From positions 1 through 29,997 of the forward strand of contig JAWBON010000008.1 in the NCBI GenBank assembly GCA_038826135.1: a DNA stretch of 29,997 bases, written 5' to 3'. The translations under genes were made by a program, and so were the position numbers. Below, one piece after another: positions 19,600-20,245 of this stretch. The stretch comes from Candidatus Odinarchaeota archaeon. GTDB lineage: Archaea; Asgardarchaeota; Odinarchaeia; Odinarchaeales; Odinarchaeaceae. Each line of letters opens with the position of its first letter. Positions within the stretch are counted from its first letter, which is position 1. The notes beneath the pieces were generated by a model, which saw nothing but the letters and a program-made list of their open reading frames with translations, was not told the origin of the DNA and did no database searches.

Positions 19600-19673
19600 T
19601 TTTTTTTAAAATATAATAATACTTTTTACATTAATATGCTTCTTTTAATTTTAGAAATAATTATTTGCCTGAT

Positions 19674-19816
19674 GGACTATTTTGAGGAGGCTCCGCCTTC
19701 TTCTTTTTCAAGAAGAGGAGGCAAATCTAGAGGGGGGAGAGGGGGAGAAGCAAATTCCTGCCGGCGGAGCCTTTTCCTCACATATCCAGTTAAAGGATTA
19801 CCCCCCTGTAATTCCT
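19674..19816 (+). ncRNA. Candidate structured non-coding RNA (unassigned; strand tentative)
   Basis: GC-rich island in an AT-rich intergenic region, with a long stem (GGCTCCGCC/GGCGGAGCC plus TGAGGA/TCCTCA), an internal hairpin, a second hairpin with a CCCCCT loop, and a downstream T-run. Confidence 0.45.
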
Positions 19817-19985
19817 CCACATATTTCTAGATGCTTTTTTATTATAAATAATTATCTTTTGTAAGCGTTTACCGAGCTAAAATAACTTACTAGATTTATA
19901 AACTTTTCTCGGGGCTGCTAGCCTTTTCGCTGATTAATTTAACCCTTAATGATATTGATTCCATGTTTAACAGACGAGTGATTAC

Positions 19986-19999
19986 GAAACATAAATATA
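19986..19999 (+). promoter_or_regulatory. Putative BRE/TATA promoter for a leaderless hypC-hypD transcript
   Basis: GAAAC-ATAAATATA lies about 25-33 nt upstream of the hypC ATG, and hypC has no SD motif. Confidence 0.35.
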
Positions 20000-20023
20000 T
20001 TCAATTTATTAACCTTTAATATT

Positions 20024-20245
20024 ATGTGTCTTGCTATACCCGGTAGGATTCTGGAAGTAAACGGTGATATTGCTAAAACAGACTTCGGTGAGGGTACGAC
20101 TAGGAACGTGAATATTTCACTAGTTAAAGCAAAAAAAGGTGATTATATTATAGTACACGCAGGGTTTGCAATTCAAATTTTAGATGAAAAAGAGGCTAGG
20201 AAGACCATTAAAATGTTTAAAGAGTTGTTAAAAGCTGAGTTATAG
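20024..20245 (+). CDS. hypC: Hydrogenase maturation chaperone HypC
   Basis: MCLAIPG N-terminus and GDYIIVHAGFAI. Confidence 0.95.
   Translation: MCLAIPGRILEVNGDIAKTDFGEGTTRNVNISLVKAKKGDYIIVHAGFAIQILDEKEARKTIKMFKELLKAEL

Follow-up and report, generated by a model that had tools for sequence, protein, structure and literature searches.

A class-wide, single-copy gene for a small folded RNA in Odinarchaeia and the start site that it may address

The stretch of DNA analysed here (29,997 nt, referred to as the window) belongs to an Odinarchaeia genome of 1.26 Mb with 38% G+C and an estimated completeness of 93%; the HypD most similar to its own is that of Candidatus Odinarchaeum yellowstonii. Just upstream of hypC, it carries a short element whose parts are collected in Table 1. 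The stems, the two AGGGGG copies, the ORF and the T-run that a preliminary description had listed were all found again where it had placed them, as were its two repeats, GAGGAGGC and GCAAAT, each of which is present twice in the element. In all seven genomes that have the element, hypC lies downstream of it on the purine strand.

Table 1. Positions of the element, its parts and the neighbouring promoter-like boxes in the window
Feature	Positions	Strand	Basis
Core domain, three-way junction closed by P1	19683..19780	- (favoured strand)	88-91% identity in three same-genus genomes; minus-strand folds
P1 arm, TGAGGA (19683-88) and GGCTCCGCC (19689-97) on plus	19683..19697	-	pairs with 19763-19780
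P1 other arm, GGCGGAGCC (19763-71, complement of GGCTCCGCC), TTT bulge and TCCTCA (19775-80, pairs with TGAGGA)	19763..19780	-	pairing with 19683-19697
P2 hairpin, CTTCTT (19697-702)/AAGAAG (19710-15)	19697..19715	-	sequence; length and sequence altered in G003
Conserved 8-mer AAGAGGAG (CUCCUCUU on minus), beside P3	19713..19720	-	identical in 7/7 genomes
P3 arm GGCAAAT, closing the conserved loop	19720..19726	-	pairs with 19754-56 and 19759-62
P3 arm ATT(CC)TGCC	19754..19762	-	pairing with 19720-19726
27-nt loop, proposed seed for the start site of the 78-aa ORF; AGGGGG copies at 19731-36 and 19740-45	19727..19753	-	duplex and conservation
Invariant core of 21 nt, rich in purines on plus and in C/U on minus	19729-19749	-	0 mismatches in 7/7 class genomes
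Variable-stem hairpin (AGGATTAC/GTAATTCCT, 19794-19816) with conserved C-run loop (CCCCCT), then CCTCC (g1 only); on the minus strand, a G-run 5' leader	19794..19818	+	stems differ in all g1 genomes
T6 run after the 3' hairpin, possible plus-strand terminator	19835..19840	+	sequence
Proximal TATA-like box TTATTTAT with A-rich BRE-like AAGATAA	19844..19858	-	sequence; predicts a minus-strand start near 19821
BRE/TATA module GAGAAAAG-TTTATAAA, oriented towards the element	19895..19910	-	16-17-nt block common with G003
BRE/TATA of hypC itself, CGAAAC-ATAAATAT	19985..19998	+	25 nt before ATG 20024
52-aa ORF, ATG 19672 to TAG 19828-30 (64 aa from ATG 19636), not a gene	19672..19830	+	starts and frames vary among homologues

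The element is present once in its own genome (BLAST) and once in each of the seven Odinarchaeia genomes compared, always upstream of hypC. These genomes fall into two genera, g1 with the window genome (G000) and G001 to G003, and the sister genus g2 with G004 to G006; the near-identical strain L086 was used in addition. In the three g1 relatives, the element is retained at 88-91% identity over 19678-19805, and conservation of the sequence begins exactly at TGAGGAGG and stops at CCTCC. The three g2 genomes have only a 43-nt block in common with the window element. The 21-mer at its core is found exactly once in every genome of the class, and its G-runs never vary among the genomes compared. 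The BLASTn search that the preliminary description had proposed for further copies and orthologues gave no second copy in the genome and orthologues in six relatives. Its suggestion of a MITE-like element is refuted by this count of a single copy per genome, in the window genome and the six relatives alike.

In 393 other genomes of the phylum, the 21-mer was recovered with two mismatches in five genomes of one genus, g82, and nowhere else except for two chance matches inside coding sequence. Outside the Asgard archaea, its exact matches in species-representative genomes are purine repeats only, mostly of cyanobacteria, and a pattern scan of metagenomes returned 44 false matches to purine repeats and one true match, strain L086. 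The g82 elements (family f6, one copy per genome) carry AGAGGAGGGAGAGGGGGAGGA. They resemble the Odinarchaeia element in 19 of the 21 core bases, in a strong outer stem and in an inner hairpin, but their tract has no closing stem of its own. They show no synteny with hypC, and no match to a start site was found for them. Judged by these features, homology of the g82 and Odinarchaeia elements is plausible at most, since the tract is of low complexity.

The stems of the element have been replaced between the two genera, with pairing kept. The conserved loop is closed by GGCAAAU/AUUUGCC in g1 and by CCAUCUC/GAGAUGG in g2, that is, all seven pairs have changed on both sides. The outer stem P1 is GAGGA-GGCUCCGC in g1 versus GGUG-GGCAA in g2, where GGTG..GGCAA pairs with TTGCC..CACC in the same place as P1 of g1. 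Furthermore, the P2 hairpin beside the 8-mer AAGAGGAG is rebuilt in g2 as a CTCC/GGAG hairpin. In our view, stems that turned over with pairing retained are strong evidence, drawn from few independent events in two clades, that a single strand has been selected for its fold. MAFFT puts the non-homologous stems of g1 and g2 in different columns, and therefore, no single consensus structure can be given on the alignment. By energy alone, the plus strand (176 nt) is not unusual (MFE z = −0.84), and its MFE structure is not the one outlined in the preliminary description: the purine tract is paired with other segments and joined to the C-run and CCUCC. For the stem-enclosed domain, the minus strand has MFE z-scores of −3.0 in the window and −2.5 to −5.9 in the relatives (against shuffles), compared to −1.0 to −2.1 for the plus strand in the seven Odinarchaeia sequences. 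In the minus-strand ensemble the loop is unpaired with a probability of 0.7-0.9, whereas the plus strand buries the tract. The C-rich 3' hairpin is present in g1 only, is weak (−2.5 to −5 kcal/mol) and is disrupted in L086. It would be one partner of the kissing loops suggested by the preliminary description, the other being the invariant G-runs. Since the element is single-copy in all seven genomes, invariant in its core and built of stems that were replaced yet still pair, it is real beyond chance. We conclude that it is a single-copy gene for a small folded non-coding RNA, class-wide in Odinarchaeia.

This gene could not be assigned to a known family. With Rfam 15, no family reached the gathering threshold over the element, and only two tRNAs pass in the window; in E-value mode, the best match over the element was snoR111 with 17.9 bits (E = 1.4). 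The element loci of the relatives had no Rfam match either. Hence, the Rfam scan suggested by the preliminary description gave no known family, and the novel small RNA that it had considered is supported by this result together with covarying stems that are conserved across the class. The description had also failed to recognise RNase P RNA or SRP RNA in the element, rightly so: the genuine copies are present elsewhere in the genome, at C25 (191.5 bits) and C9 (163.5 bits), and both identities were rejected. An H/ACA guide was considered and rejected as well. ACA follows both window hairpins (…CCTCACATAT, …CCTCCACATAT) and is unconserved, its position being occupied by CATATC in G001, CACTCA in G002 and CACGTA in G003, and no K-turn was seen in the element. 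A C/D box sRNA was rejected in the same way; the TGATGG at 19670 is not part of the conserved block, and the relatives do not have it.

We favour, with some reserve, transcription of the minus strand, on which the invariant tract is rich in C and U. The preliminary description had read the element on the plus strand, with a purine loop, and this is probably wrong in view of the minus-strand z-scores, the promoter geometry and the antisense logic described below, although the plus-strand T-run and the G·U pairs of the 3' hairpin oppose such a revision. Candidate BRE/TATA boxes for the minus strand are present in all genomes and resemble the promoters of the SRP RNA and of hypC in this genome, which also supplied the spacing rule for the start predicted in Table 1. 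In g1, several modules of an A-rich BRE and a TATA box are directed at the element. The TATA-like box TTATTTAT is kept in strain L086, the GAGAAAAG-TTTATAAA module recurs in G003 within a spacer that cannot be aligned apart from it, and G001 and G002 have analogous modules of an A-rich BRE and TTTAATTA. In G001, the C/U strand has a tandem duplication of a BRE/TATA-like ATATGAAAACT-TTTAT-AT immediately before the element (L009, about 1420-1470). In g2 and g82, the minus strand has a BRE/TATA 23-28 nt before the outer stem and T-runs after the stem; in g1, no oligo-T is seen on this strand for at least 60 nt after P1. A promoter weight matrix built from 877 upstream regions gave a motif too weak to orient the gene. 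C·A oppositions that become G·U on the minus strand are found in P3 of g2 and in the outer stem of G375.

A candidate partner for the loop was found elsewhere in the genome. The purine version of the loop is nearly a copy of the ribosome binding site (RBS) and start codon of a 78-aa ORF (G000:C12:16753-16790). The site reads UAGAGGGG-uuuu-GGAGA-U-GGGGGAGAAGCA, with UAG as the stop codon of the upstream gene; in the AUG of the 78-aa ORF, the A is the final base of GGAGA, the U is the inserted base and the G opens the G-run. All 25 loop bases (UAGAGGGGGGAGAGGGGGAGAAGCA) occur in order at this site, with two insertions of 4 nt and 1 nt on the mRNA side, and the match is confined to the loop. The site, which BLAST had picked up as a weak match of the element on contig C12, is an internal RBS directly after the upstream stop, where the first gene of a three-gene cluster meets the second, and the 78-aa protein encoded by the middle gene starts with MGEKQL. 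The cluster (about 100, 78 and 98 aa; G000:C12:16450-17350, or L002 1196-2099) adjoins rps7, and its proteins have no Pfam match. An orthologous cluster lies in L170 (1190-2088), and the cluster is conserved in both genera of Odinarchaeia.

In g1, the pattern AGAGGGG..GGAG..GGGGGAG matches only the element and the C12 start site; a reversed control gave 0 matches. When all G-rich windows of the genome were paired with the minus-strand loop, the locus itself gave −68.5, the C12 start site −48.5 and a poly-G contig end −47.7 kcal/mol, followed by the next non-repetitive site at −36.6 over a background of −16.4 ± 5.1. The best duplex of twelve shuffled loops was −41.2. In all four g1 species, the cognate duplexes range from −48.5 to −49.9, and the variable spacer of their start sites (uuuu, uc, caua or uuuc) falls in the predicted bulge. 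Furthermore, the start site is the longest invariant run of the 890-nt cluster in the four g1 species (17 nt versus 9 nt for the next), and it includes the third positions of GGG, GAG and AAG, three synonymous G in an AT-rich genome, at a protein identity of 60-63% among these species. Thus, a predicted unpaired loop is complementary, beyond the genome background, to a distant RBS and start codon, and the target site is constrained at the nucleotide level in the four g1 species, which was not seen in G006. Broad targeting of start sites was rejected; among the top 30 duplex matches, 3 lie at gene starts (background, 9%), with no enrichment. The scan points to one outstanding candidate target in this genome. 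Two other places in the genome came up along the way. The end of contig C11 is a run of GGGGGGGGGGGGAAAAAAGGGGGGGGGG, probably an assembly or sequencing artefact, that inflates scans for G-rich targets. A short G+C-rich hairpin (…CGAAGGGGGAAACGGGGGAGACC…CCCCGTTCTCTC) in an AT-rich spacer at G000:C15:18905-18965, which surfaced in both duplex scans, may be a further small RNA.

The sister genus complicates this picture. A profile of four proteins located the orthologous cluster in G006, the sole g2 genome in which it was detected, and it again adjoins rps7. With the start site found there, UAGGAGAGAAUUCUAUGGAAAG, the g2 loop forms only a weak duplex (−13.7 kcal/mol), and the gapped pattern gave nothing in g2 beyond the element. 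A second g2 site with GGGGGAGAAACA was rejected, as it lies inside a coding region and such sites occur at chance rate. The start-site match would therefore have arisen, or survived, only in g1. Since the loop is equally invariant in g2 without such a match, the 78-aa gene cannot explain the invariance of the loop, and since the loop was fixed before the genera split, the RNA must have another, older partner. One may go further and regard the tract as the working end of an old Asgard RNA, common to Odinarchaeia and at least one other family, whose partner is the translation machinery or a conserved protein, with the 78-aa match as a recent add-on; we consider this improbable. The partner may, for example, be reached by mimicry of the anti-Shine-Dalgarno sequence, in competition with 16S rRNA at many starts, or may be the G-rich 16S segment GGGGGUGGGAGAGG. 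Neither pre-rRNA flanks nor 16S rRNA was accepted as a partner: the purine loop pairs at background level (−26.9), and the C/U loop reaches −36.4 against a G-rich 16S segment through a match of 8 nt, which was treated as chance. The G000 MAG yielded no 3' end of 16S rRNA; G001 and G002 supplied the anti-Shine-Dalgarno end, GGAUCACCUCCU.

The most serious alternative to a minus-strand RNA is a purine-rich RNA of about 150 nt from the plus strand that ends at the C-loop hairpin, CCUCC and the U-run and whose loop copies the 78-aa start site, acting as a decoy or a fold switch. In a variant, the RNA could switch between the three-way junction and a state that joins the G-runs to the C-rich 3' hairpin by pairing, as the MFE structure with its pairing of the purine tract to the C-run and CCUCC would allow. 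The limits of conservation, TGAGGAGG and CCTCC, fit such a transcript. Oligo-T follows the conserved unit in all five g1 sequences on this strand only, as TTTT or T6-T7, with the TTTT of G001 to G003 directly after CCTCC; the g82 elements, however, have no plus-strand T-run within 80 nt, and internal runs of T5-T6 (19704-08 in the window, also in G001 and G002) should end archaeal transcription early. The stems of the 3' hairpin differ within g1 and contain G·U pairs that are valid on the plus strand only (G001 to G003), and one G·U each in the 3' hairpin of G005 (g2) and in the inner hairpin of g82 also fits this strand, so that the wobble evidence is split between strands; the C-rich hairpin itself, however, is absent in g2. 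In addition, the plus strand folds no better than its shuffled versions (z = −0.8 to −2.1), the candidate TATA boxes of G001 to G003 are too close and have no BRE, and the candidate box of the window is lost in the near-identical L086. A decoy with deletions of 4 nt and 1 nt would also mimic the start site poorly for a protein, whereas a duplex tolerates bulges. Taken together, a plus-strand RNA is possible, but we hold it to be less probable than a minus-strand one.

Other explanations fare worse. The constant neighbourhood of hypC and, in g1, the hairpin and U-run that precede it invite the view that the element is a cis-acting leader or attenuator, similar to a riboswitch, of the hydrogenase-maturation genes hypC-hypD. 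However, a BRE/TATA that belongs to hypC itself is found 25 nt ahead of its start codon, both in the window and in G003 (L011), where the layout from BRE/TATA to ATG is the same as in window 19985-20026, and the hypC mRNA appears to be leaderless. As far as the sequence allows a judgement, the element does not lie inside the 5' UTR of hypC. In g2, the element is separated from hypC by two unrelated genes (181 and 138 aa) and by a BRE/TATA; no riboswitch family matches, and the g82 elements are not beside hypC. Because hypC has its own promoter and genes intervene in g2, a role as leader or riboswitch is very unlikely, and the linkage to hypC would be conserved synteny only. The g2 locus (L018 263-2810 in G004, and the same in G005 and G006) has the element between a divergent gene of the Fer4_22 type, similar to the beta subunit of sulfhydrogenase, and the two inserted genes. 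One of these encodes a coiled-coil protein of 181 aa with a weak match to a winged helix like that of TFIIE-alpha, and the other a protein of 138 aa. A hydrogenase link through this hydB-like gene was rejected; it adjoins the element in g2, and its orthologue lies about 100 kb away in g1. A coding function was suggested by the 52-aa ORF with its RGG motif in the preliminary description, and both strands of the window have open frames of 47-64 codons, so that an RGG peptide (plus strand) or a Pro/Leu-rich peptide (minus strand) might be read from them. The ORF, however, was refuted by its homologues, 5 of 8 of which have no start codon, with frame-shifted tails: in its frame, G001, G003 and all three g2 genomes contain a stop and lack a start codon before the core. 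The three frames of the minus strand are equally inconsistent, and the ORF has no Pfam match. Together with the single copy per genome, this makes a small protein or a MITE scarcely credible. Finally, the element might act as DNA, as a protein-binding site, or descend, as a fixed remnant without RNA function, from a copy of the C12 start site; gene conversion could in principle account for the similarity. Against this stand the stems, which change across genera with pairing kept and so point to a folded single strand, the core, which is older than the split of g1 and g2 while the start-site match is found in g1 only, and the restriction of the match to the loop. We regard an action as DNA or a remnant as highly improbable.

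Returning to the minus strand, our model is as follows. An RNA of about 110-150 nt would be transcribed from this strand and would fold into a three-way junction of P1, P2 and P3 that displays the invariant C/U-rich loop of 21-27 nt. In g1, the loop would pair with the internal RBS and AUG of the middle gene in the three-gene cluster beside rps7, and this pairing may block initiation of translation or alter the stability of the mRNA. The RNA is thus probably a switch for the 78-aa gene, as suggested by the predicted duplex. From the genomic record we infer that a transcript exists, which strand it comes from, where it starts and ends, and how it would act in regulation. For the whole of this model, a stand-alone ncRNA gene specific to Odinarchaeia that acts as a minus-strand antisense switch, we see about an even chance.

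Asgard archaea are the closest prokaryotic relatives of eukaryotes, and to our knowledge, next to nothing has been described of their regulatory RNAs. The element adds a clean, class-wide RNA gene that is absent from Rfam. Its concrete and falsifiable prediction, namely that one RNA forms a 25-nt duplex, interrupted by two bulges, with one start site, is amenable to tests in vitro without culture. The element also poses a puzzle, since the loop stays unchanged even where its predicted target is missing.

Pairing of C-rich loops with translation start regions is known from other organisms. In AT-rich Firmicutes, sRNAs of the RsaE/RoxS type have C-rich seeds, unpaired motifs that pair with the G-rich Shine-Dalgarno sequence. 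These bacterial RNAs use short UCCC seeds, repeated in several loops, for many targets, whereas the element described here has one long invariant C/U tract in a three-way junction, and the Rfam scan gave no match of the element to families of this type. Closer in mode of action are two sRNAs of Methanosarcina mazei. The intergenic sRNA41 is proposed to repress translation by masking RBSs in polycistronic mRNAs (Buddeweg et al. 2017, as summarised in PMC5867862). As in sRNA41, the site matched here is an internal RBS in a gene cluster; unlike sRNA41, the element comes from another phylum, has no likeness to it in sequence or structure, and has a longer match (25 nt, two bulges) to a single outstanding predicted target. 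In sRNA154, loop 2 is described as an anti-RBS in a stable stem-loop that masks the RBS of a trans-encoded mRNA (Prasse et al. 2017, as summarised in PMC5867862), and the sRNA also stabilises other targets. The element, read on the minus strand, is predicted to resemble it in carrying an anti-RBS tract in a loop, although the sequences are unrelated. If the minus-strand reading is true, masking of internal RBSs by sRNAs, so far described from methanogens, extends to Asgard archaea. In sum, the element appears to represent a new RNA family that has neither sequence nor fold in common with sRNA41 and sRNA154, and for which we propose a mode of action like theirs.
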